NCBI GenBank assembly: GCA_012145005.1
Contig: GCA_012145005.1_3029.1
From: a phage
Length of the DNA: 47,548 nt
Strand: one strand, 5' to 3'
A model generated the notes under the pieces. It searched no databases. It was not told the origin of the DNA and worked only from the letters and a program-made list of their open reading frames with translations. Positions 5,489-47,290 of the stretch are shown here, one piece after another (positions within the stretch are counted from its first letter, which is position 1; each line of letters begins with the position of its first letter). Position numbers and translations under genes: made by a program.

Positions 5489-5518
5489 GTTTACTTTTCC
5501 TCTTGACTGTGGTATAAT
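5489..5518 (+). promoter_or_regulatory. T4-type early promoter upstream of regB
   Basis: GTTTAC, 17 bp, TATAAT. Confidence 0.7.
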
Positions 5519-5545
5519 TTTTCTATCAGTTAAGAGGAGAATAAC

Positions 5546-6007
5546 ATGACTATCAATACAGAAGTTTTTATCCGTCGAAATAAGCTTCGTCGTCATTTTG
5601 AGTCGGAGTTTCGTCAAATTAACAATGAGATTCGTGAGGCATCAAAAGCAGCAGGGGTCTCATCGTTTCATCTGAAATATTCTCAGCATCTTCTTGATCG
5701 TGCAATTCAACGGGAGATTGATGAGACATATGTTTTTGAATTATTCCATAAAATAAAAGACCATGTTTTAGAAGTTAATGAATTCCTGAGTATGCCTCCG
5801 CGTCCTGACATTGACGAGGATTTTATTGATGGGGTTGAATATCGTCCTGGACGTTTAGAAATCACAGATGGAAATCTTTGGCTTGGATTTACAGTTTGTA
5901 AGCCTAATGAGAAGTTCAAAAACCCGTCACTTCAATGCAGGATGGCAATTATCAATAGTCGTCGTTTACCAGGAAAGGCTTCTAAAGCAGTAATTAAAAC
6001 TCAATGA
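5546..6007 (+). CDS. regB: RegB site-specific endoribonuclease
   Basis: 153 aa; MTINTEVFIRRNKLRRHFESEFRQ matches T4 RegB. Confidence 0.9.
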   Translation: MTINTEVFIRRNKLRRHFESEFRQINNEIREASKAAGVSSFHLKYSQHLLDRAIQREIDETYVFELFHKIKDHVLEVNEFLSMPPRPDIDEDFIDGVEYRPGRLEITDGNLWLGFTVCKPNEKFKNPSLQCRMAIINSRRLPGKASKAVIKTQ

Positions 6008-6014
6008 GGTAAGC

Positions 6015-6560
6015 ATGAGAAAAGCACTACTCGCTGGTCTATTGGCCATTTCAATGATGGCACATAGCTCCGAGCATACTTTCAGTAATGTCCAACTCGA
6101 TAACATGCGTTACGCATATCAATTCGGGGAACAATTTTCTAAGGATGGAAAATATAAAACACACAAAAATATCCACAAGAGCGGATTAGGTCATATAATG
6201 GCTGCTATTTTATGGCAAGAAAGCTCTGGCGGAGTTAATTTAAAATCTAAACCAAAGCATCACGCCTACGGAATGTTCCAAAATTATTTGCCTACTATGC
6301 GAGCAAGAGTTAAGGAACTTGGTTATAATATGACCGATGCTGAAATAAAAAGAATGTTGAATAAACGGTCCAATTCAGCTTCCTGGGCGTACATTGAACT
6401 TTCTTATTGGTTAAATATACATAAGGGCGATATAAGAAAAGCAATATCCTCTTATAATTCGGGATGGAATGTTAAAGCAGGTTCTAAATATGCTTCTGAA
6501 GTCCTAGAAAAGGCTAATTACCTTAAAAATAATAAACTTTTGGAAATAGTAAATGACTAA
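6015..6560 (+). CDS. secreted lytic-transglycosylase-like protein (vs.1-like)
   Basis: signal peptide MRKALLAGLLAISMMAHS; SLT-like motifs ESSGG and AYGMFQ. Confidence 0.55.
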   Translation: MRKALLAGLLAISMMAHSSEHTFSNVQLDNMRYAYQFGEQFSKDGKYKTHKNIHKSGLGHIMAAILWQESSGGVNLKSKPKHHAYGMFQNYLPTMRARVKELGYNMTDAEIKRMLNKRSNSASWAYIELSYWLNIHKGDIRKAISSYNSGWNVKAGSKYASEVLEKANYLKNNKLLEIVND

Positions 6561-6894
6561 AATTTTGGTTTTATGTATAGGATTAATTTCATTTTCTGCG
6601 TTAGCAGATACATCATATACTGAAATTAGAGAATATGTAAACCGTACTGCAGCGGATTATTGCGGGAAAAATAAAGCATGTCAAGCTGAATTTGCGCAGA
6701 AATTAATATATGCATATAAAGACGGAGAAAGAGATAAATCAAGCAGATACAAAAATGATACATTGTTAAAACGATATGCTAAAAAGTGGAATACCTTAGA
6801 ATGTTCAGTTGCGGAGGAGAAAGATAAAGCCGCTTGTCATTCAATGGTTGACCGTTTGGTAGATTCTTATAATCGAGGATTGAGTACTAGATGA
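6553..6894 (+). CDS. secreted cysteine-containing small protein (possibly vs)
   Basis: signal peptide MTKILVLCIGLISFSALA; position between vs.1-like and tk region. Confidence 0.45.
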   Translation: MTKILVLCIGLISFSALADTSYTEIREYVNRTAADYCGKNKACQAEFAQKLIYAYKDGERDKSSRYKNDTLLKRYAKKWNTLECSVAEEKDKAACHSMVDRLVDSYNRGLSTR

Positions 6895-7358
6895 TTGTAA
6901 AATATATCAAGGGCGATATTGTCGCCCTTTTCGCTGAAGGTAAAAATATTGCGCATGGATGCAATTGTTTTCATACTATGGGTTCAGGCGTAGCGGGTCA
7001 ATTAACCAAAGCTTTCCCTAAAATTTTGGAAGCTGATAAATTACAGACTGAATGGGGTGATGTAACTAAACTCGGTTCTTACTCAGTCTATGAAAAATAC
7101 TTTAGGACTCATAAAGCGTATTGCTTCAACCTTTATACTCAATTTCAACCAGGGCCAAATTTTGAGTATTCCGCTTTAATGAATTGTATGTTAGAATTAA
7201 ATGAGTTTGGTGAAAATAAACTGATTAAACCTACAATCTATATGCCTAGGATTGGTGCAGGCATAGGTAAAGGAAACTGGGATATTATTGAGGGGATTTT
7301 AGATACATATTCCTCTAAATTAGAAATTGTGATTGTTGATTGGGAACCGTTATTATGA
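6891..7358 (+). CDS. macro domain protein (ADP-ribose binding/hydrolase fold)
   Basis: GCNCFHTMGSGVAG and IGAGIGKG glycine-rich macro-domain motifs. Confidence 0.65.
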   Translation: MIVKYIKGDIVALFAEGKNIAHGCNCFHTMGSGVAGQLTKAFPKILEADKLQTEWGDVTKLGSYSVYEKYFRTHKAYCFNLYTQFQPGPNFEYSALMNCMLELNEFGENKLIKPTIYMPRIGAGIGKGNWDIIEGILDTYSSKLEIVIVDWEPLL

Positions 7359-7567
7359 ATATACATTATCCACATCCGTATGACCCAAAGAATAAGGCAG
7401 TAATTATTCGTCAATGGGAACGCATTTGCCGTACTAAATGTCCAATTAATAGTCCACATGATGTAGATAAAGACTACATTGGAACATTCGTTGAATATAC
7501 CTTTATTGATAAGAAAGGTCGTAAACAGCATGTAGAAGAATACTGCTTAAAGGTGACATGGTTATGA
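7355..7567 (+). CDS. hypothetical protein
   Basis: ORF track trimmed to ATG overlapping previous stop. Confidence 0.4.
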   Translation: MNIHYPHPYDPKNKAVIIRQWERICRTKCPINSPHDVDKDYIGTFVEYTFIDKKGRKQHVEEYCLKVTWL

Positions 7568-7770
7568 GCCAAACTAGTATTCTTAAAAATGCCCACTGTG
7601 AAAAGTGTAAATGGCCGGTTGTTTTTGCTTTATGCAACGATGAAATGGCTTGTGATTTCGATTATTGGTGCTATTGTTCTAATAAAGGATGCATCAATCA
7701 TAAAGGTGAAGGATTTTATTCGGGATTTTATCCTTATCCAGATTTCGTTAAAGAAGGTAAACCGAAATGA
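7564..7770 (+). CDS. cysteine-rich small protein (possible Zn binding)
   Basis: CEKC...C...C...CYC...C pattern. Confidence 0.4.
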   Translation: MSQTSILKNAHCEKCKWPVVFALCNDEMACDFDYWCYCSNKGCINHKGEGFYSGFYPYPDFVKEGKPK

Positions 7771-7940
7771 ATAGTTCTGAGTTACAATATGAAGTGTTAC
7801 GTGAACTTGATAATTTAATTGAACTCGCTGTTAATAAAGGTTTTGCCATTGGAATTGGTCAAAAAGATACTGATCATTTAACTGTGGAAATATTTAAGCA
7901 AAAGCGAATTATTTTAAAACTTTTGGAAATTAATATATGA
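7767..7940 (+). CDS. small hypothetical protein (57 aa)
   Basis: ATGA-coupled ORF below track cutoff, fills the gap between neighbours. Confidence 0.3.
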   Translation: MNSSELQYEVLRELDNLIELAVNKGFAIGIGQKDTDHLTVEIFKQKRIILKLLEINI

Positions 7941-8122
7941 GTTTAAGCAAAGAACAAAAAGACAAACTCTTTTCTCTTATCCACGAAGTTATGGATAAAA
8001 ACAGTGAATTGGAAAAAGTTTGTGATGAATGCGGTCCTTTTAATGCAAATGAATACGAAGAACTTTCTAAAGAATTCGATAATAAAGAACAAGAACTCAT
8101 TGATTATATAAATTCTTTATGA
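7937..8122 (+). CDS. small acidic helical protein
   Basis: ORF track; resembles next ORF (xxEQKxxLFxL...). Confidence 0.4.
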   Translation: MSLSKEQKDKLFSLIHEVMDKNSELEKVCDECGPFNANEYEELSKEFDNKEQELIDYINSL

Positions 8123-8307
8123 TTACTCGCGAACAAAAGAACGAAATATTATTTTTAGTTGGTGAAATTATTAGTTTAGAAAAGGATTTGTCTTTTGAAT
8201 TATCTTCTGATTATGGAGATGCCGAAACATATTACGAATTAGTAAAATCTATCGATAAAGCTGAAAATGATTTAGAAACATATTTAGAAAATTTAACTAA
8301 GGACTAA
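8119..8307 (+). CDS. small acidic helical protein, paralog of previous
   Basis: ORF track; MITREQKNEILFLVGEI. Confidence 0.4.
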   Translation: MITREQKNEILFLVGEIISLEKDLSFELSSDYGDAETYYELVKSIDKAENDLETYLENLTKD

Positions 8308-8308
8308 A

Positions 8309-8890
8309 ATGGCGAGTTTAATTTTTACTTATGCAGCAATGAATGCTGGAAAATCTGCTTCTCTTTTAACTGCTGCACATAATTATAAAGAACGCGGAAT
8401 GAGTGTATTAGTTCTTAAGCCTGCTATTGATACTCGCGATTCTGTCTGTGAAGTTGTTTCTCGCATTGGAATTAAACAGGAAGCGAATATTATTACAGAT
8501 GATATGGATATTTTCGAGTTCTATAAATGGGCTGAAGCACAAAAAGATATTCATTGCGTATTTGTAGATGAAGCCCAATTTTTAAAAACTGAACAAGTAC
8601 ATCAATTGAGCCGAATTGTTGATACATATAATGTTCCTGTTATGGCTTATGGATTAAGGACTGATTTCGCTGGAAAATTGTTTGAAGGTTCTAAAGAACT
8701 TTTAGCGATTGCAGATAAACTTATTGAACTAAAGGCAGTTTGTCATTGTGGTAAAAAAGCGATTATGACAGCTCGATTAATGGAAGATGGAACACCAGTT
8801 AAAGAAGGTAATCAAATCTGTATTGGTGATGAAATTTATGTTTCTTTGTGTAGAAAACATTGGAATGAATTAACTAAAAAGCTCGGTTAG
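8309..8890 (+). CDS. tk: thymidine kinase
   Basis: 193 aa; P-loop AMNAGKSASLL; C-terminal CHCGKKA zinc motif; matches T4 Tk. Confidence 0.93.
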   Translation: MASLIFTYAAMNAGKSASLLTAAHNYKERGMSVLVLKPAIDTRDSVCEVVSRIGIKQEANIITDDMDIFEFYKWAEAQKDIHCVFVDEAQFLKTEQVHQLSRIVDTYNVPVMAYGLRTDFAGKLFEGSKELLAIADKLIELKAVCHCGKKAIMTARLMEDGTPVKEGNQICIGDEIYVSLCRKHWNELTKKLG

Positions 8891-8899
8891 TGCAAAAGT

Positions 8900-8907
8900 T
8901 ATAAATA
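8900..8907 (+). promoter_or_regulatory. T4 late promoter TATAAATA
   Basis: exact TATAAATA about 25 nt upstream of ATG 8933. Confidence 0.5.
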
Positions 8908-8932
8908 GGTTTATCTAACTAAAGGGGTATAT

Positions 8933-9145
8933 ATGCTACAATTAACTGAAAAGCAACTTCGCAATCTTACTGTGCTTCAATTAGATGAAATTCGTAGGGA
9001 AGTTGGAAATATCATTTCAGCTTTGCGTCGAGAAGTATCACTCAACCAATCTCCGGCAGACTATACTAGATTGCGAAATTTTGAAAAATACCTTGATAAA
9101 GTTAAGGCCGTGCATCGGCATAAAGTAAATACAGGACAAAAATGA
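8933..9145 (+). CDS. hypothetical protein adjacent to rI
   Basis: ORF track. Confidence 0.45.
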
Positions 9146-11915: not shown

Positions 11916-12377
11916 ATGATTATTAATGAAAGCTCTTGGCACTATAAATTATTCAAAATGTTTAATGATGAATGGAAACGACCTAAGACACTATGCGCGT
12001 ATTTTTGGTCTATTGTTATTCCTACATTTTTCGTTTCTTTTTTCGGATGTACTATACTCGCAGGTCTAACTATCATCTGCGCAGAAATCATGCAGAAATG
12101 GCTTATTTTTGGTAGTTTATGGACTCTTATTCCATCAGCATTTATACTTGCCATTTTGCTTGTTTTACTTATTATCGGTTCATTTGTTATTCCTGCACAA
12201 TTGCATGAAAAATATAAAGATTATAAATGGAAAAAGGATTATGCTTTACATGTAGAAAATATTGATAGGGCGTATAAAGGTTTACCTCCTATTCAACCAA
12301 AGAAATCTATTATCGTCGAATTTTTAAAAGCGCGTAAAGCTAAAGTATGTCCTGTTATTGAATATAAGGCTGAATGA
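11916..12377 (+). CDS. two-TM membrane protein
   Basis: two long hydrophobic segments in ORF track protein. Confidence 0.45.
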   Translation: MIINESSWHYKLFKMFNDEWKRPKTLCAYFWSIVIPTFFVSFFGCTILAGLTIICAEIMQKWLIFGSLWTLIPSAFILAILLVLLIIGSFVIPAQLHEKYKDYKWKKDYALHVENIDRAYKGLPPIQPKKSIIVEFLKARKAKVCPVIEYKAE

Positions 12378-13387
12378 TGAAAACAGTAATGAAAAGCTAT
12401 TTTGGCAGTCATCTTTATGGAACTTCTACTCCAGAATCTGATGTAGATTTTAAAGAAATCTTTGTTCCTCCTGCTCGCGATATTCTTATCGGAAATGTTA
12501 AAGAGCATATGAGTAAAAACACTAACAACACATCATCTAAAAACACTAAAGATGATATTGACCATGAACTATACAGTCTTAAGTATTTCTTTAAATTAGC
12601 AGCAGATGGTGAAACTGTAGCATTGGATATGCTTCACACTCCACCTGAGCTAGTGGTTAAATCTGATTTACCTGATGTATGGAAATTTATCCAAGACAAT
12701 CGTTCACGATTTTATACAACTAACATGAAATCCTATTTAGGATATGTCCGTAAGCAAGCTTCTAAATATGGTGTTAAGGGTTCTCGTTTGGCCGCATTGC
12801 GTGATGTATTGAAAGTAGTTAATCAAATCCCCGATCAGTGGGTTGATTATCAAGAAGACGGTTCCATTAAGCAACGTCGCACTAAAGTTGAAGATATTAA
12901 GCATCGTCTTCCAGAGAACGAATTCTGTGAATGGGTATTCCATAATCATGAGAAAACCGGTCCACAAACGTTCTACACTGTGTTGGGTCGTAAATATCAG
13001 ACAACACTTTCTCTTATTGAGCTTAAGCAGTCTTTGAATAAACTTGATGCCGAATACGGTGAACGTGCTCGTAAGGCTGAAGCGAATGAAGGTATTGACT
13101 GGAAAGCATTGAGTCATGCTTGTCGTGGTGGACTCCAACTATTGGAAATTTACAAAACTGGTGACTTAGTCTATCCACTTCAAGATGCTCCGTTTATTCT
13201 CGACGTGAAGCTGGGTAAACATCCATTTAAAACTGTTCAAGAGTTTTTGGAAGATGTGGTCGATCAAGTAGAAGCAGCATCCATTGAAGCTTCTAAGAAC
13301 GGTATGCAGCAAAAAGTAGACATGGGTTTTTGGGATGACTTCCTTGAGAGGGTTTATCTTGAAAACCACCGAAGTTATTATAAATGA
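12374..13387 (+). CDS. Pol-beta-superfamily nucleotidyltransferase-fold protein
   Basis: N-terminal FGSHLYGTSTPESDVDF fits hG[GS]x9-13Dh[DE]h NTase signature; candidate third acidic residue in VALDML. Confidence 0.5.
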   Translation: MMKTVMKSYFGSHLYGTSTPESDVDFKEIFVPPARDILIGNVKEHMSKNTNNTSSKNTKDDIDHELYSLKYFFKLAADGETVALDMLHTPPELVVKSDLPDVWKFIQDNRSRFYTTNMKSYLGYVRKQASKYGVKGSRLAALRDVLKVVNQIPDQWVDYQEDGSIKQRRTKVEDIKHRLPENEFCEWVFHNHEKTGPQTFYTVLGRKYQTTLSLIELKQSLNKLDAEYGERARKAEANEGIDWKALSHACRGGLQLLEIYKTGDLVYPLQDAPFILDVKLGKHPFKTVQEFLEDVVDQVEAASIEASKNGMQQKVDMGFWDDFLERVYLENHRSYYK

Positions 13388-13511: not shown

Positions 13512-13997
13512 ATGCATATTTTAATGCAATGCCTTGGCAACAAAATTAATGATTTTAATCATAAGCGTGTTAATGATTACATTAAAGACAAACTTGAGAT
13601 TAAAGACACACTTTTTAGAGGACTTACAATAGAGGAAGTGCTATCTTATAAGTTTGAAGTTAATAGGAGAATCAAATTTAAAAGAATAACTTCCTTTAGC
13701 AGTGAGTCTCATATAGCTGAAACGTTTGCGGCAGAACGCTATATGACTAATGTTTTAGTAGTATTAAAAAATGCAAACGTTTTCGACTATTCGACTGCTA
13801 TGATTGACATTTTAGAAAATTTAATCGCAATTGAAGAATCTGGTCAAACTGACGATGATAAGCTTAACAAGCTTTATGATAACCTTTGTATGGTAGATTA
13901 TGAAAGAGAGTTTTTACTGCCAATTAATTCTGAGTTAATAGTTAAAAACATATATTTTGATAGCAAAAAGAACATGCATATAGTAGAAATGGAATAA
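13512..13997 (+). CDS. putative mono-ADP-ribosyltransferase (R-S-E class, C3/ModB-like minimal domain)
   Basis: LFRG (Arg36), TSFSS (STS-like, 60-64), YEREFLLPINSELIV (ExE 131-133 in an ARTT-loop-like context) in canonical order and spacing. Confidence 0.5.
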   Translation: MHILMQCLGNKINDFNHKRVNDYIKDKLEIKDTLFRGLTIEEVLSYKFEVNRRIKFKRITSFSSESHIAETFAAERYMTNVLVVLKNANVFDYSTAMIDILENLIAIEESGQTDDDKLNKLYDNLCMVDYEREFLLPINSELIVKNIYFDSKKNMHIVEME

Positions 13998-14101: not shown

Positions 14102-14123
14102 TGATACGGATTTGGAGAATAAA

Positions 14124-15092
14124 ATGAAAACTGTAACTATCAATAAGGGTATCTACTTCGGTAAAGAAATCTCTGGAACTTTTGAGCTCTTAGGCGAATG
14201 GTTCCCAGATAATGCTCCGGTAGATGCACAAGGAGATGGTAAAGTTTTTGTTGAAATTGACGGTAAACGTCGCGGTGTTTGGGTTTACAAATCAGATATT
14301 TCATATGATGGTGTAAAAGTTGAAGAAGTTAAAGAATCATATGAAGATATGAAAACCCGCATTAATAAAAGATTTAATGTTATGGGAATGATGACGAATG
14401 GTATTATTAATGGAAATATTCGTTCATTAATTATCTCTGGCGCAGCAGGTATTGGTAAAACGTATTCTTTAGATAAAGCTTTAAATAAAGCAAATGATAT
14501 TGGATACATTGAATATAAAAGCATTAATGGTAAAATCTCTGGTATTGGTCTTTATGAGCAGCTTTGGAATAATCGTGAAGAGAATTCTGTCCTTTTGATT
14601 GATGATGTGGATGTTTTCTCTGATATGGACATTCTTAATCTTCTAAAAGCCGCTCTGGACACTGGAGAGACCCGTAAAGTCTGCTGGAGTACTGCGTCTT
14701 CTTACTTAGAAGAAAAAGGCATTGACCGTGAGTTTGAATTTAAAGGAACGATTGTTTTTATCACAAACGTTGACATTGACCGCGAATTAGACCGTGGTAC
14801 TAAACTTGCTCCACATTTACAAGCATTGGTGTCCCGCTCAGTTTATTTGGATTTGGGTGTTCACACTAATGAAGAAATTATGGTCAGGGTTGAAGATGTT
14901 ATTCTTTCAACCGACATGATGCAAAAGCGCGGTCTTTCTGATGAAGAAACTTATAAAGCATTATCATGGATGAAAGTTAATGTTAATCGTTTACGCAATG
15001 TTTCACTGCGTACTGCTCTTTATCTTGCTGACTTTATTATGACCGACAAAAACGGTTGGGAAGAAATTGCTGAGGTTACTCTTCTAAAATAA
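14124..15092 (+). CDS. AAA+ ATPase-like protein
   Basis: Walker A ISGAAGIGKT, Walker B VLLIDDVD, sensor-1-like IVFITN; about 100-aa N-terminal domain. Confidence 0.55.
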   Translation: MKTVTINKGIYFGKEISGTFELLGEWFPDNAPVDAQGDGKVFVEIDGKRRGVWVYKSDISYDGVKVEEVKESYEDMKTRINKRFNVMGMMTNGIINGNIRSLIISGAAGIGKTYSLDKALNKANDIGYIEYKSINGKISGIGLYEQLWNNREENSVLLIDDVDVFSDMDILNLLKAALDTGETRKVCWSTASSYLEEKGIDREFEFKGTIVFITNVDIDRELDRGTKLAPHLQALVSRSVYLDLGVHTNEEIMVRVEDVILSTDMMQKRGLSDEETYKALSWMKVNVNRLRNVSLRTALYLADFIMTDKNGWEEIAEVTLLK

Positions 15093-44374: not shown

Positions 44375-45802
44375 GTGGTAGAAATTATTCTTTCTCATCT
44401 CATATTTGATCAAGCTTATTTTTCAAAAGTTTGGCCATATATGGATTCAGAATATTTTGAAAGTGGTCCAGCTAAAAATACATTCAAATTAATTAAATCT
44501 CATGTTAATGAGTACCATAGCGTTCCATCTATTAATGCGCTAAATGTTGCATTAGAAAATAGTTCATTTACTGAAACAGAATATTCTGGTGTAAAAACAC
44601 TTATTTCAAAACTGGCTGATTCTCCAGAAGACCACAGCTGGTTAATAAAAGAAACAGAAAAATATGTTCAGCAAAGGGCGATGTTTAATGCTACGTCTAA
44701 AATAATCGAAATTCAAACCAATGCTGAGCTTCCTCCAGAAAAACGAAATAAGAAAATGCCAGATGTAGGTGCTATTCCTGACATCATGCGCCAAGCATTA
44801 TCAATTTCATTTGATAGTTACGTTGGTCATGATTGGATGGATGACTACGAAGCACGTTGGCTATCTTATATGAATAAAGCTCGTAAGGTTCCATTTAAAC
44901 TCAGAATTCTAAACAAAATTACGAAAGGCGGAGCTGAAACAGGAACACTGAACGTTTTAATGGCTGGCGTTAACGTTGGTAAGTCATTAGGATTGTGTTC
45001 ATTGGCAGCAGATTATTTACAGCTCGGACATAATGTTCTTTACATTTCCATGGAAATGGCAGAAGAAGTCTGTGCTAAACGTATTGATGCTAACATGCTC
45101 GATGTTTCTCTTGACGATATTGATGATGGACATATTTCTTACGCTGAGTATAAAGGAAAAATGGAAAAATGGCGTGAGAAATCTACTCTTGGTCGTTTAA
45201 TCGTTAAACAGTACCCTACTGGTGGGGCAGATGCTAACACATTCAGGTCTCTCTTGAATGAATTGAAGCTCAAAAAGAATTTTGTTCCAACAATCATTAT
45301 TGTCGACTATCTAGGTATTTGTAAATCTTGCCGCATCAGAGTTTACTCAGAAAATAGTTACACAACTGTTAAAGCTATTGCAGAGGAATTGCGTGCTCTT
45401 GCTGTTGAAACCGAAACTGTTCTTTGGACTGCAGCACAGGTTGGTAAACAAGCTTGGGACTCTTCCGATGTTAACATGAGTGATATCGCAGAATCTGCTG
45501 GTCTTCCAGCAACAGCTGATTTTATGCTTGCGGTCATTGAAACCGAGGAGCTAGCAGCTGCTGAACAACAACTCATTAAGCAAATCAAATCACGATATGG
45601 CGATAAGAATAAGTGGAATAAGTTTTTGATGGGTGTTCAAAAGGGAAATCAGAAATGGGTAGAAATTGAACAAGATTCTACTCCAACTGAAGTGAGTGAA
45701 GTAGCAGGTTCACAACAGATTCAGGCTGAACAGAATCGCTATCAAAGAAATGAATCCACTCGAGCACAGTTAGATGCTTTGGCAAATGAATTAAAATTTT
45801 AG
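44375..45802 (+). CDS. 41: replicative DNA helicase gp41
   Basis: 475 aa, GTG start; Walker A GVNVGKS; matches T4 gp41. Confidence 0.95.
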   Translation: MVEIILSHLIFDQAYFSKVWPYMDSEYFESGPAKNTFKLIKSHVNEYHSVPSINALNVALENSSFTETEYSGVKTLISKLADSPEDHSWLIKETEKYVQQRAMFNATSKIIEIQTNAELPPEKRNKKMPDVGAIPDIMRQALSISFDSYVGHDWMDDYEARWLSYMNKARKVPFKLRILNKITKGGAETGTLNVLMAGVNVGKSLGLCSLAADYLQLGHNVLYISMEMAEEVCAKRIDANMLDVSLDDIDDGHISYAEYKGKMEKWREKSTLGRLIVKQYPTGGADANTFRSLLNELKLKKNFVPTIIIVDYLGICKSCRIRVYSENSYTTVKAIAEELRALAVETETVLWTAAQVGKQAWDSSDVNMSDIAESAGLPATADFMLAVIETEELAAAEQQLIKQIKSRYGDKNKWNKFLMGVQKGNQKWVEIEQDSTPTEVSEVAGSQQIQAEQNRYQRNESTRAQLDALANELKF

Positions 45803-46362: not shown

Positions 46363-46656
46363 ATGAAAAAATTTATTTTTGCTACAATTTTTACTTTGGC
46401 TTCTTGTGCTGCTCAGCCTGCTATGGCAGGATATGATAAAGATTTGTGTGAATGGTCTATGACTGCAGATCAGACTGAAGTTGAAACTCAAATTGAAGCG
46501 GATATTATGAATATCGTTGAGCGCGATCGTCCTGAAATGAAAGCTGAAGTGCAAAAACAACTTAAGTCTGGTGGTGTAATGCAGTATAATTATGTTCTGT
46601 ATTGCGATAAAAACTTTAATAACAAAAATATCGTAACCGAAATCACAGGCGAATAA
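46363..46656 (+). CDS. sp: Spackle periplasmic protein
   Basis: 97 aa; signal peptide MKKFIFATIFTLASCAAQPAMA; matches T4 Sp. Confidence 0.88.
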   Translation: MKKFIFATIFTLASCAAQPAMAGYDKDLCEWSMTADQTEVETQIEADIMNIVERDRPEMKAEVQKQLKSGGVMQYNYVLYCDKNFNNKNIVTEITGE

Positions 46657-46657
46657 T

Positions 46658-47290
46658 ATGATTTATTATATGCACAAAAATCCACCGTTTAAATACGGTA
46701 AATTTCCTGATGCACAATGTTATAATATAACGCCTGATGAAAATAACCGTGGATATCTTATTGGCACAATTTTTGTAATTGTTAAAGATAACGAAATCGT
46801 TGCCTGGGCAGATTTTAAAGGTACAACATATGATGTTAATCCGGTGCCTTTCACATATTACAATTTAATGGATTTGGCATACGATTATAATTGGTTTAAT
46901 CATGACACTTTGGCTCATATTGAAGGTGTAGGATTTGATATTTCATATTCGGAATACACTTTAAGCCCTATGAGTCGAGCGCATAAAGAACCTGAATATT
47001 TTTCATTTAGGAAACGTGTAAACTTTAAACGCAGCACAGAGTATGTCGGTGGAATCTTTGTTAAAGATAATCGAATTATTCGTATTAATTATCCTTTGAG
47101 CGTTAGTCAAAAAGATATTGATGTTGATTTAGATTTCACTGAAAATAATATTAATAATATTGCTTCTGTGTATTTTGGTATCGATCACAAAATTGTAATA
47201 TGTGGATATGAATTACCGTTTGAAGAACAGCCTAAAGTAAAAGTTTCTATTGACGATCAAATTTTTAATGCTTTTATGAATAAAGGTTAA
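46658..47290 (+). CDS. hypothetical protein (T4 61.2-like position)
   Basis: ORF track, 210 aa. Confidence 0.5.
   Translation: MIYYMHKNPPFKYGKFPDAQCYNITPDENNRGYLIGTIFVIVKDNEIVAWADFKGTTYDVNPVPFTYYNLMDLAYDYNWFNHDTLAHIEGVGFDISYSEYTLSPMSRAHKEPEYFSFRKRVNFKRSTEYVGGIFVKDNRIIRINYPLSVSQKDIDVDLDFTENNINNIASVYFGIDHKIVICGYELPFEEQPKVKVSIDDQIFNAFMNKG

Follow-up and report, generated by a model that had tools for sequence, protein, structure and literature searches.

The phage macrodomain Tk.4 (AdfM): a predicted glutamine-type active site, a probable mode of action against DarTG2, and kinship with Adpp

Loss of both adfA and adfN leaves phage T4 resistant to the bacterial defense system DarTG2, from which a further anti-DarTG2 factor was predicted in a Nature Communications paper (PMC11825919). 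According to the HIDEN-SEQ preprint of November 2025 (bioRxiv 10.1101/2025.11.20.689424), tk.4 is the only significant hit in a T4 transposon screen performed under DarTG2, and a clean T4 tk.4 knockout is DarTG2-sensitive. Its authors find Tk.4 structurally similar to M. tuberculosis DarG, name the gene adfM, and, on whether ADP-ribose is taken off DNA enzymatically, write that this “seems likely.” In the passages of that preprint that we searched, we found no Tk.4 biochemical assay and no discussion of catalytic residues, nor any mention of tk.4 complementation, SCO6735, TARG1, or glutamine. A second phage macrodomain, gp104 of PhiKZ, was independently given the name AdfM (Cell Rep 2026, PMC13309987): it removes thymidine-linked ADP-ribose (thymidine-ADPr) from DNA in vitro, its deletion mutants are DarTG2-sensitive, and the protein is imported into the phage nucleus. 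The portion of that paper available to us holds no mention that we found of tk.4, phage T4, or T-even phages.

Related macrodomains have been described in other settings. The Streptomyces coelicolor protein SCO6735 reverses the thymidine-ADPr made by DarT, in cells as well as in vitro. Its activity is lost in the Q85A mutant and almost lost in N27S, a conserved Asn holds the catalytic Gln in place with a His nearby, and the mechanism has been proposed to be water-mediated (PMC9411070). A January 2026 preprint (bioRxiv 10.64898/2026.01.28.702374) describes Adpp, a macrodomain encoded by 15% of phage NARP1 operons. The Vibrio phage Gary enzyme, once purified, converts ADPR-1''-phosphate, the product of the aRES NADase defense, into ADP-ribose; anti-aRES activity is lost when any one of the 3 operon genes is inactivated, Adpp is useful only alongside NARP1 (Adps and Namat), and Poa1p is given as its nearest known homologue. 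In the passages searched, no mention of tk.4 or phage T4 was found. A survey of viral NAD and ADP-ribose systems from the Aravind group treats phage macrodomains in general terms and leaves Tk.4 unmentioned (PMC9503650). The functional literature on the role of tk.4 and Adpp consists of recent preprints. The identity and anti-DarTG2 role of the gene discussed below are already known from one of them; we add the assignment of its active site to the glutamine type, the non-orthology of the 2 proteins named AdfM, and the kinship with Adpp.

The DNA analyzed here (the window) is a stretch of 47,548 nucleotides of phage DNA (GCA_012145005.1, contig GCA_012145005.1_3029.1) with a G+C content of about 34% throughout. 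Its region 5500-9000 has matches in 675 phage records, nearly all of them T4-like Tequatroviruses, and the source of the window is a T4-like Tequatrovirus. The best match to this region is Salmonella phage Jbel (99.4%), the phage closest to the window around tk.4, followed by RB14 and RB18 at about 98.7%. The window phage is distinct from T4: like RB14, it carries additional small ORFs separating tk.3 from tk.2, and it has a further Mod-like gene between nrdC.11 and nrdC.10. The plus-strand genes follow the T4 order, in synteny with the annotations of T4, RB14, and Jbel; the ORF at 6891-7358 is therefore tk.4, whose newer name is adfM (anti-DarT factor Macrodomain). Its product is identical to T4 Tk.4 (NP_049723.1) at 155 of 155 residues, over the full length, so the published anti-DarTG2 role applies directly to the gene in the window. 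The features of the locus are as follows.

5490-5518, plus strand: sigma-70-like site TTTACT-17-TATAAT with TG, upstream of regB, from a consensus scan only
5546-6007, plus strand: regB, from T4 gene order
6015-6560, plus strand: vs.1, SLT domain protein
6553-6894, plus strand: vs, directly upstream of tk.4
6875-6879, plus strand: Shine-Dalgarno-like GAGGA, 11 nt upstream of the tk.4 ATG, read from the sequence, with a putative function
6891-6894, plus strand: ATGA shared by the end of vs and the start of tk.4, from sequence and ORF coordinates
6891-7358, plus strand: tk.4 (adfM) coding sequence, single-domain macrodomain protein of 155 aa plus stop, from the ORF list
7355-7358, plus strand: ATGA in which the tk.4 stop codon overlaps the tk.3 ATG, from sequence
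from 7355, plus strand: tk.3, DUF7202 (Pfam, 2e-38)
between tk.3 and tk, plus strand: 2 small ORFs, then tk.2 and tk.1, from gene order
8309-8890, plus strand: tk, from gene order
13512-13997, plus strand: ModA/ModB-like transferase ORF, between nrdC.11 and nrdC.10

The gene sits in a tightly packed run, regB-vs.1-vs-tk.4-tk.3. The vs/tk.4 overlap has the same layout in the RB14, T4, and Jbel annotations, and in all 3 the annotated start of tk.3 lies 4 nt before the end of tk.4. The ATGA shared by vs and tk.4 suggests translational coupling; because such overlaps would couple tk.4 to its neighbors, a polar effect of the published tk.4 knockout is conceivable. A promoter scan of the region returned no more sigma-70-like sites than expected from shuffled sequence; for this reason a single site, the one ahead of regB, was retained, as a weak lead to a possible early promoter for the regB-vs.1-vs-tk.4 run; tk.4 is presumably expressed early. 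A hairpin at 6909-6929, inside the 5' end of tk.4, was set aside: folding of the 86 nt around it was no better than that of shuffled sequences (z -1.6), and the terminator-like call is on the minus strand, where no gene exists.

A sequence-only reading of this DNA had called the product a macro domain protein and had pointed to a profile search for MacroD/Tpp1-type families and to a macro-fold match in structure prediction. The fold is borne out. Pfam Macro (PF01661) matches residues 22-132 at 27.7 bits, above its cut-off of 22, and an AlphaFold2 model made from a 61-sequence alignment (pLDDT 94.9, pTM 0.90) contains a six-stranded mixed sheet and five helices in the three-layer alpha/beta/alpha arrangement of a macrodomain. 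Foldseek agrees, and a search of PDB sequences with the family profile recovered the same set of structures, with E-values from 1e-11 to 6e-18. The proposed class is not: the closest structural neighbors are TARG1, DarG, Poa1p, SCO6735, and BT1257, and not MacroD, PARG, or viral Mac1, whose structures score clearly below the TARG1-like set. Tk.4 is a stand-alone macrodomain of the ALC1/TARG1-like class, and a MacroD-type assignment was rejected. Among other profiles, PHROG 335, annotated “phosphatase,” matches at 1e-65; the PADLOC DarG profile matches at 1.3e-9, in its N-terminal macro part only; and the NCBIfam DarG profile (NF048014) matches at 2.5e-7, with 30.3 bits against a cut-off of 250 and over profile positions 2-146 of 338 only.

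For the active site, the Tk.4 family was aligned by MAFFT with reference sequences recovered from the PDB search alignments; the sequence of PhiKZ gp104 was taken from the PhiKZ genome record. Both glycine-rich motifs that had first drawn attention to the ORF occur in it, one at aa 23-36 and the other at aa 121-128, and they fall among the following features.

6954-6965, plus strand: codons of H22-G23-C24-N25, from the MAFFT alignments
6957-6998, plus strand: motif GCNCFHTMGSGVAG (aa 23-36), within which G31-S-G33 forms the first glycine loop and lines the ADP-ribose cleft
7140-7142, plus strand: codon CAA of Q84, the Gln that defines the family, at the position of the catalytic Lys in DarG, TARG1, and PhiKZ AdfM, from the alignments
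7245-7274, plus strand: P119-R-I-G-A-G-I-G-K-G128, the second (diphosphate-binding) glycine loop, which contains IGAGIGKG (7251-7274)

The glycine loops of the macrodomain ADP-ribose cleft were found in Tk.4 as G31-S-G33 and G122-A-G124; G33 and A35 in the first region, and P119, I121, G122, and G124 in the second, are invariant in the Tk.4 family. H22 aligns with Adpp H24, Poa1p H23, SCO6735 H24, and the TARG1 His, and N25 with DarG N22, SCO6735 N27, and PhiKZ AdfM N23. Q84 is part of the invariant motif Y-T-Q, located where a beta-strand ends, and it takes the place of the catalytic Lys (T. aquaticus DarG K80, TARG1 K84, and PhiKZ AdfM K78) and aligns with SCO6735 Q85 and the equivalent BT1257 Gln; the position of TARG1 D125 is G126 in Tk.4. 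Q84 is kept in 118/118 database relatives and in a further 138/138 representatives of 50%-identity clusters (256/256 together), N25 in 117/118 and 138/138, and H22 in 113/118 and 131/138. The combination that marks SCO6735 and BT1257, a Gln with a conserved Asn and a nearby His, thus recurs in Tk.4 as Q84, N25, and H22. The predicted catalytic center of Tk.4 is of this SCO6735-like glutamine type, not of the lysine type.

Comparison with the described proteins sets Tk.4 apart from each of them. DarG, the DarTG2 antitoxin (PDB 5M31/5M3E/5M3I; NF048014), shares 18-21% identity with Tk.4; it has a catalytic Lys where Tk.4 has Gln84, and a C-terminal DarT-binding domain that the 155-aa phage protein lacks. 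No darT-like gene adjoins tk.4, whose neighbors are vs and tk.3. Tk.4 was accordingly rejected as a DarG proper, for want of the catalytic Lys, the C-terminal domain, and a darT neighbor. SCO6735 (PDB 5E3B) and BT1257 (PDB 2FG1/2AFC) are 21-30% identical to Tk.4, SCO6735 itself 21%. These are cellular proteins, whereas Tk.4 is a phage protein; their “mobile loop” after the catalytic strand is 5-6 residues longer, with a gap in Tk.4 in both the MAFFT and the HMMER alignments, and the DNA-contact lysine K34 of SCO6735 is S32 in Tk.4. Human TARG1 uses the dyad K84/D125, the corresponding Tk.4 residues being Q84 and G126, and yeast Poa1p has a Ser at the Q84 position and an insertion of about 40 residues relative to Tk.4.

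The 2 proteins named AdfM are both stand-alone phage macrodomains with a DarTG2-countering role, and they differ in active site: PhiKZ gp104 is of the Lys type (K78) and Tk.4 of the Gln type (Q84). They share 17% identity, and BLASTP aligned only 23 residues, at E 0.005. Two neighbor-joining trees were built, the first with 200 bootstraps and the second, to which NARP1-linked macrodomains from Table S1 of 10.64898/2026.01.28.702374 were added, with 100. In these trees, both small and distance-based and therefore indicative only, the Tk.4 family was monophyletic in 96% of the first set of replicates and grouped with SCO6735 and BT1257 in 90%, against 9.5% for Tk.4 with DarG; the Gln-type supergroup was supported in 81% of the second set; and PhiKZ gp104 joined DarG in 100% of replicates in both. 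On account of the 23-residue match and these groupings, T4 AdfM and PhiKZ AdfM appear to come from different macrodomain subclasses and to be non-orthologous.

We consider it probable that Tk.4 shields the phage from DarTG2 by ADP-ribose removal at a Gln-type macrodomain site. According to this model, the DarTG2 toxin DarT2 of the host would use NAD+ to place ADP-ribose on thymidines of single-stranded phage DNA, and replication would be blocked. The 2 glycine loops of Tk.4 would bind the ADP-ribose, and H22, N25, and Q84 would catalyze hydrolysis of the ribose-thymine bond as in Streptomyces SCO6735, releasing free ADP-ribose and restoring the DNA. That the macro protein might counter a host defence based on ADP-ribosylation had been raised in the sequence-only reading, and it matches the published T4 genetics for the identical protein, namely the screen hit and the sensitized knockout. 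By analogy with characterized macrodomains, protection probably comes about through enzymatic removal of thymidine-linked ADP-ribose. Since SCO6735 reverses thymidine-ADPr and its Q85A mutant is dead, a Gln-type site is compatible with the proposed activity. Some features may count against action on thymidine-ADPr: Tk.4 is without the Lys and the C-terminal domain of DarG, and also without the longer mobile loop and K34 of SCO6735.

Protection by Tk.4 could also arise in other ways. One, which we regard as quite improbable, is that the protein neutralizes DarT2 noncatalytically, by attaching to the toxin or to the DNA that the toxin has modified, much as direct binding to DarT has been reported or proposed for AdfA and AdfB (PMC11825919; PMC11481870). 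Catalytically dead SCO6735 Q85A does still inhibit DarT in vitro through interaction (PMC9411070). Yet Tk.4 has no counterpart of the DarT-binding C-terminal domain of DarG, and H22, N25, Q84, and both glycine loops show little or no variation among 256 diverged relatives, which belong to many phage groups; this near-invariance favors conserved chemistry over a single toxin-binding surface. A catalytic alternative, somewhat better placed but still unlikely, is that Tk.4 is mainly an ADP-ribose-1''-phosphate phosphatase of the Poa1p/Adpp kind, acting for instance on ADPR-1''-phosphate derived from aRES; such an activity could also coexist with activity on DNA, a single site carrying out both. 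The RefSeq T4 record labels Tk.4 “phosphatase; contains A1pp phosphatase motif,” in agreement with the PHROG label, and by sequence Gary Adpp is the closest biochemically tested relative of Tk.4 (35% identity over 140 aa, E 2e-23), far nearer to it than DarG (18-21%), SCO6735 (21%), or PhiKZ AdfM (17%). The essential His of Adpp and Poa1p (H24 and H23) is kept as H22; an H24A construct of Adpp, which turns ADPR-1''-phosphate into ADP-ribose, is listed in the primer table of the preprint and is tied to a lost anti-defense effect. Equivalents of H22, N25, and Q84 are found in 9/9 aligned NARP1-neighbor macrodomains, and one protein, from Acinetobacter phage phiAbaA1, nests inside the Tk.4 family in the neighbor-joining tree, with Gary Adpp on a neighboring branch. 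That the closest characterized homologue acts on free ADPR-1''-phosphate and not on DNA may count against our model. On the other side, a phosphatase for a free metabolite leaves the DarTG2 sensitivity of the T4 knockout unexplained. In Poa1p the residue equivalent to Q84 is a Ser rather than a Gln, and Adpp needs NARP1: no NARP1 gene (Adps or Namat) lies within 2 genes of tk.4, which is flanked by regB, vs.1, and vs on one side and by tk.3, the small ORFs, tk.2, tk.1, and tk on the other, and the table of NARP1-linked macrodomains (Table S1 of 10.64898/2026.01.28.702374) contains no Escherichia or Klebsiella phages. De-ADP-ribosylation of DNA is kept as the main model because NARP1 neighbors are absent and a free-metabolite phosphatase would not account for the DarTG2 phenotype.

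A third alternative links Tk.4 to ADP-ribosylation by the phage itself: Tk.4 would be the eraser for a phage ADP-ribosyltransferase (the ORF at 13512-13997 or Alt/ModA/ModB) and would tune the modification of host proteins. The sequence-only reading had proposed both the transferase and a writer/eraser pair. Its transferase holds up well. The ORF is 30% identical to T4 ModB (E 3e-15) and matches PHROG 832 at 7e-24; R36, S61, and E131-x-E133 are invariant in a three-way alignment with ModA and ModB, so that R, S, and ExE are intact, and the N-terminus is about 36 residues shorter. Searches of Pfam, NCBIfam, PADLOC, and PDB sequences gave no matches, the evidence coming from PHROG 832 and the direct ModA/ModB comparison. 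By these comparisons the ORF is credibly an active, genuine ModA/ModB paralogue, and it shares the strand and early-gene region of tk.4. For the pair, in contrast, distribution, distance, and chemistry are all unfavorable. The ORF is a variable insertion that T4, RB14, and Jbel lack; in these phages the nrdC.11-nrdC.10 gap is empty (about 115 bp) and tk.4 is retained. At this junction, 44 of 491 matching phage records contain the ORF (copies at 90% identity or more; T2 is a carrier), compared with 383 records that encode a Tk.4 of at least 80% identity. The 2 genes lie about 6.2 kb and some 20 genes apart and do not share an operon-like block. ExE-type transferases such as ModA, ModB, and Alt modify arginine, and Arg-ADP-ribose is removed by DraG/ARH enzymes and not by TARG1-like or MacroD-like macrodomains, which cleave Asp/Glu esters, O-acetyl-ADPr, and nucleic-acid-linked ADPr (PMC8120803). 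Finally, the depletion of tk.4 in the T4 screen was specific to the presence of DarTG2. An eraser role for Tk.4 is thus highly improbable; a functional link between tk.4 and the Mod-like gene is not supported, and annotation of tk.4 should not tie it to the transferase. The proper annotation is tk.4/adfM, anti-DarTG2 macrodomain, in place of “phosphatase” or “hypothetical protein.”

The relation between removal of ADP-ribose from DNA, the activity we favor for Tk.4, and the chemistry of Adpp deserves separate comment. Adpp and Tk.4 belong to the same phage Gln-type macrodomain family, with H22, N25, Q84, and the glycine loops in common; they differ in that Adpp stands between Adps and Namat in the NARP1 operon and has a free-metabolite substrate, and the phenotype of Tk.4 is against a DNA-modifying toxin. 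One family therefore now has 2 roles to its name: against DarTG2, from the genetics of T4, and as an ADPR-1''-phosphate phosphatase, from the biochemistry of NARP1-AP phages. Since its closest tested relative is the ADPR-1''-phosphate phosphatase Adpp, Tk.4 may more generally remove substituents from the ribose C1''. We tentatively extend this to a proposal that we regard as less likely than not: that the Tk.4 family consists of phage-wide, general C1''-substituent hydrolases, in which one site (H22, N25, Q84) takes ADP-ribose off thymine in ssDNA, against DarTG2, and, where NARP1 is present, dephosphorylates ADPR-1''-phosphate, against aRES, and that T4 AdfM and PhiKZ AdfM were recruited independently from the Gln-type and Lys-type subclasses. 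If this is true, T4 “AdfM” and “Adpp,” published separately, are one enzyme family acting against 2 unrelated defenses; and if the enzymes are bifunctional, one small, very common phage gene blunts both a DNA-ADP-ribosylating toxin and an NAD-depleting defense, and the mechanism without lysine that was proposed for SCO6735 gains another, phage-borne case.

The family is widespread. Of 50,697 phage records, 2751 carry a Tk.4 homologue of any kind. Searched against 1.84 billion representatives of 50%-identity clusters, the family profile recovers 1215 clusters with E-values no higher than 1e-30 and 9112 with E-values no higher than 1e-10. The hosts of these phages include Escherichia, Klebsiella, Salmonella, Pseudomonas, Vibrio, Acinetobacter, and Aeromonas, among others. 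A cellular origin with a DarT-linked context was considered for 2 homologues labelled as bacterial MAG proteins (P0072 and P0118), which proved uninformative: both lie on T4-like phage contigs, which carry Rnl1, PNKP, dCMP deaminase, and spanin genes.

The macrodomain gene tk.4 (adfM) shares the window with other genes that touch on ADP-ribose or on counter-defence, and these are listed here together with two local features of the tk.4 region.

1394-1849, + strand: nudE, NUDIX hydrolase gene (Pfam NUDIX, 1e-13)
6909-6929: perfect 9-bp inverted repeat, AAGGGCGAT-ATT-GTCGCCCTT, in tk.4 codons 7-13
7558-7940, + strand: small ORFs of 70 aa and 57 aa, between tk.3 and tk.2
12374-13387, + strand: nrdC.11 (Pfam RlaP match, 3e-11)
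13512-13997, + strand: ModA/ModB-like ADP-ribosyltransferase (161 aa), inserted between nrdC.11 and nrdC.10
14112-15092, + strand: nrdC.10 (weak AAA/STAND-type NTPase matches, under cut-offs)
46658-47290, + strand: candidate gene 61.2, a 210-aa ORF (position; PHROG 3781 at 2e-134)

The 210-aa ORF directly follows sp (46363-46656) and gene 41 (44375-45802) and, judged by this position, is gene 61.2. An eLife paper (PMC9391042) identifies 61.2 as adfA, an anti-DarT1 factor; with this assignment, the window would hold two distinct anti-DarT genes, adfM and the candidate adfA, next to the dmd/tifA "anti-TA island".

The nudE gene lies about 5 kb upstream of tk.4. ADP-ribose is among the substrates of T4 NudE, and the enzyme could therefore dispose of the ADP-ribose that Tk.4 would release.

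The Mod-like ORF conserves R36, S61, and E131-x-E133; its N-terminus is about 36 aa shorter than those of ModA and ModB. It is a variable insertion: of 491 related phage records only 44 carry it, including that of T2, and T4, RB14, and Jbel lack it. Of its two neighbors, nrdC.11 matches RlaP, a nucleotidyltransferase of an RNA-repair pathway. For nrdC.1, located in the same block, the HIDEN-SEQ preprint (10.1101/2025.11.20.689424) describes inhibition of the Septu defence; on this basis, counter-defence genes may be abundant across the nrdC.x block.

In the literature, the name AdfM stands for two phage macrodomains that are not orthologous and were named separately: the Gln-type T4 Tk.4 and PhiKZ gp104, a DarG-like protein of the Lys type. 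Proteins named Adpp (ADPR-1''-phosphate phosphatase) overlap with the Tk.4 family. Both the double use and the overlap are potential sources of annotation confusion.

Within tk.4, the inverted repeat lies 18 nt past the start codon and was called terminator-like on the minus strand, which carries no gene there; an 86-nt RNA around the repeat folds no better than its shuffles (z -1.6). Between tk.3 and tk.2, T4 has no genes, in contrast to the two small ORFs of this phage, which are common to RB14 and Jbel (RB32ORF111c/110c-like). Several small indels, this one included, set the phage apart from T4.
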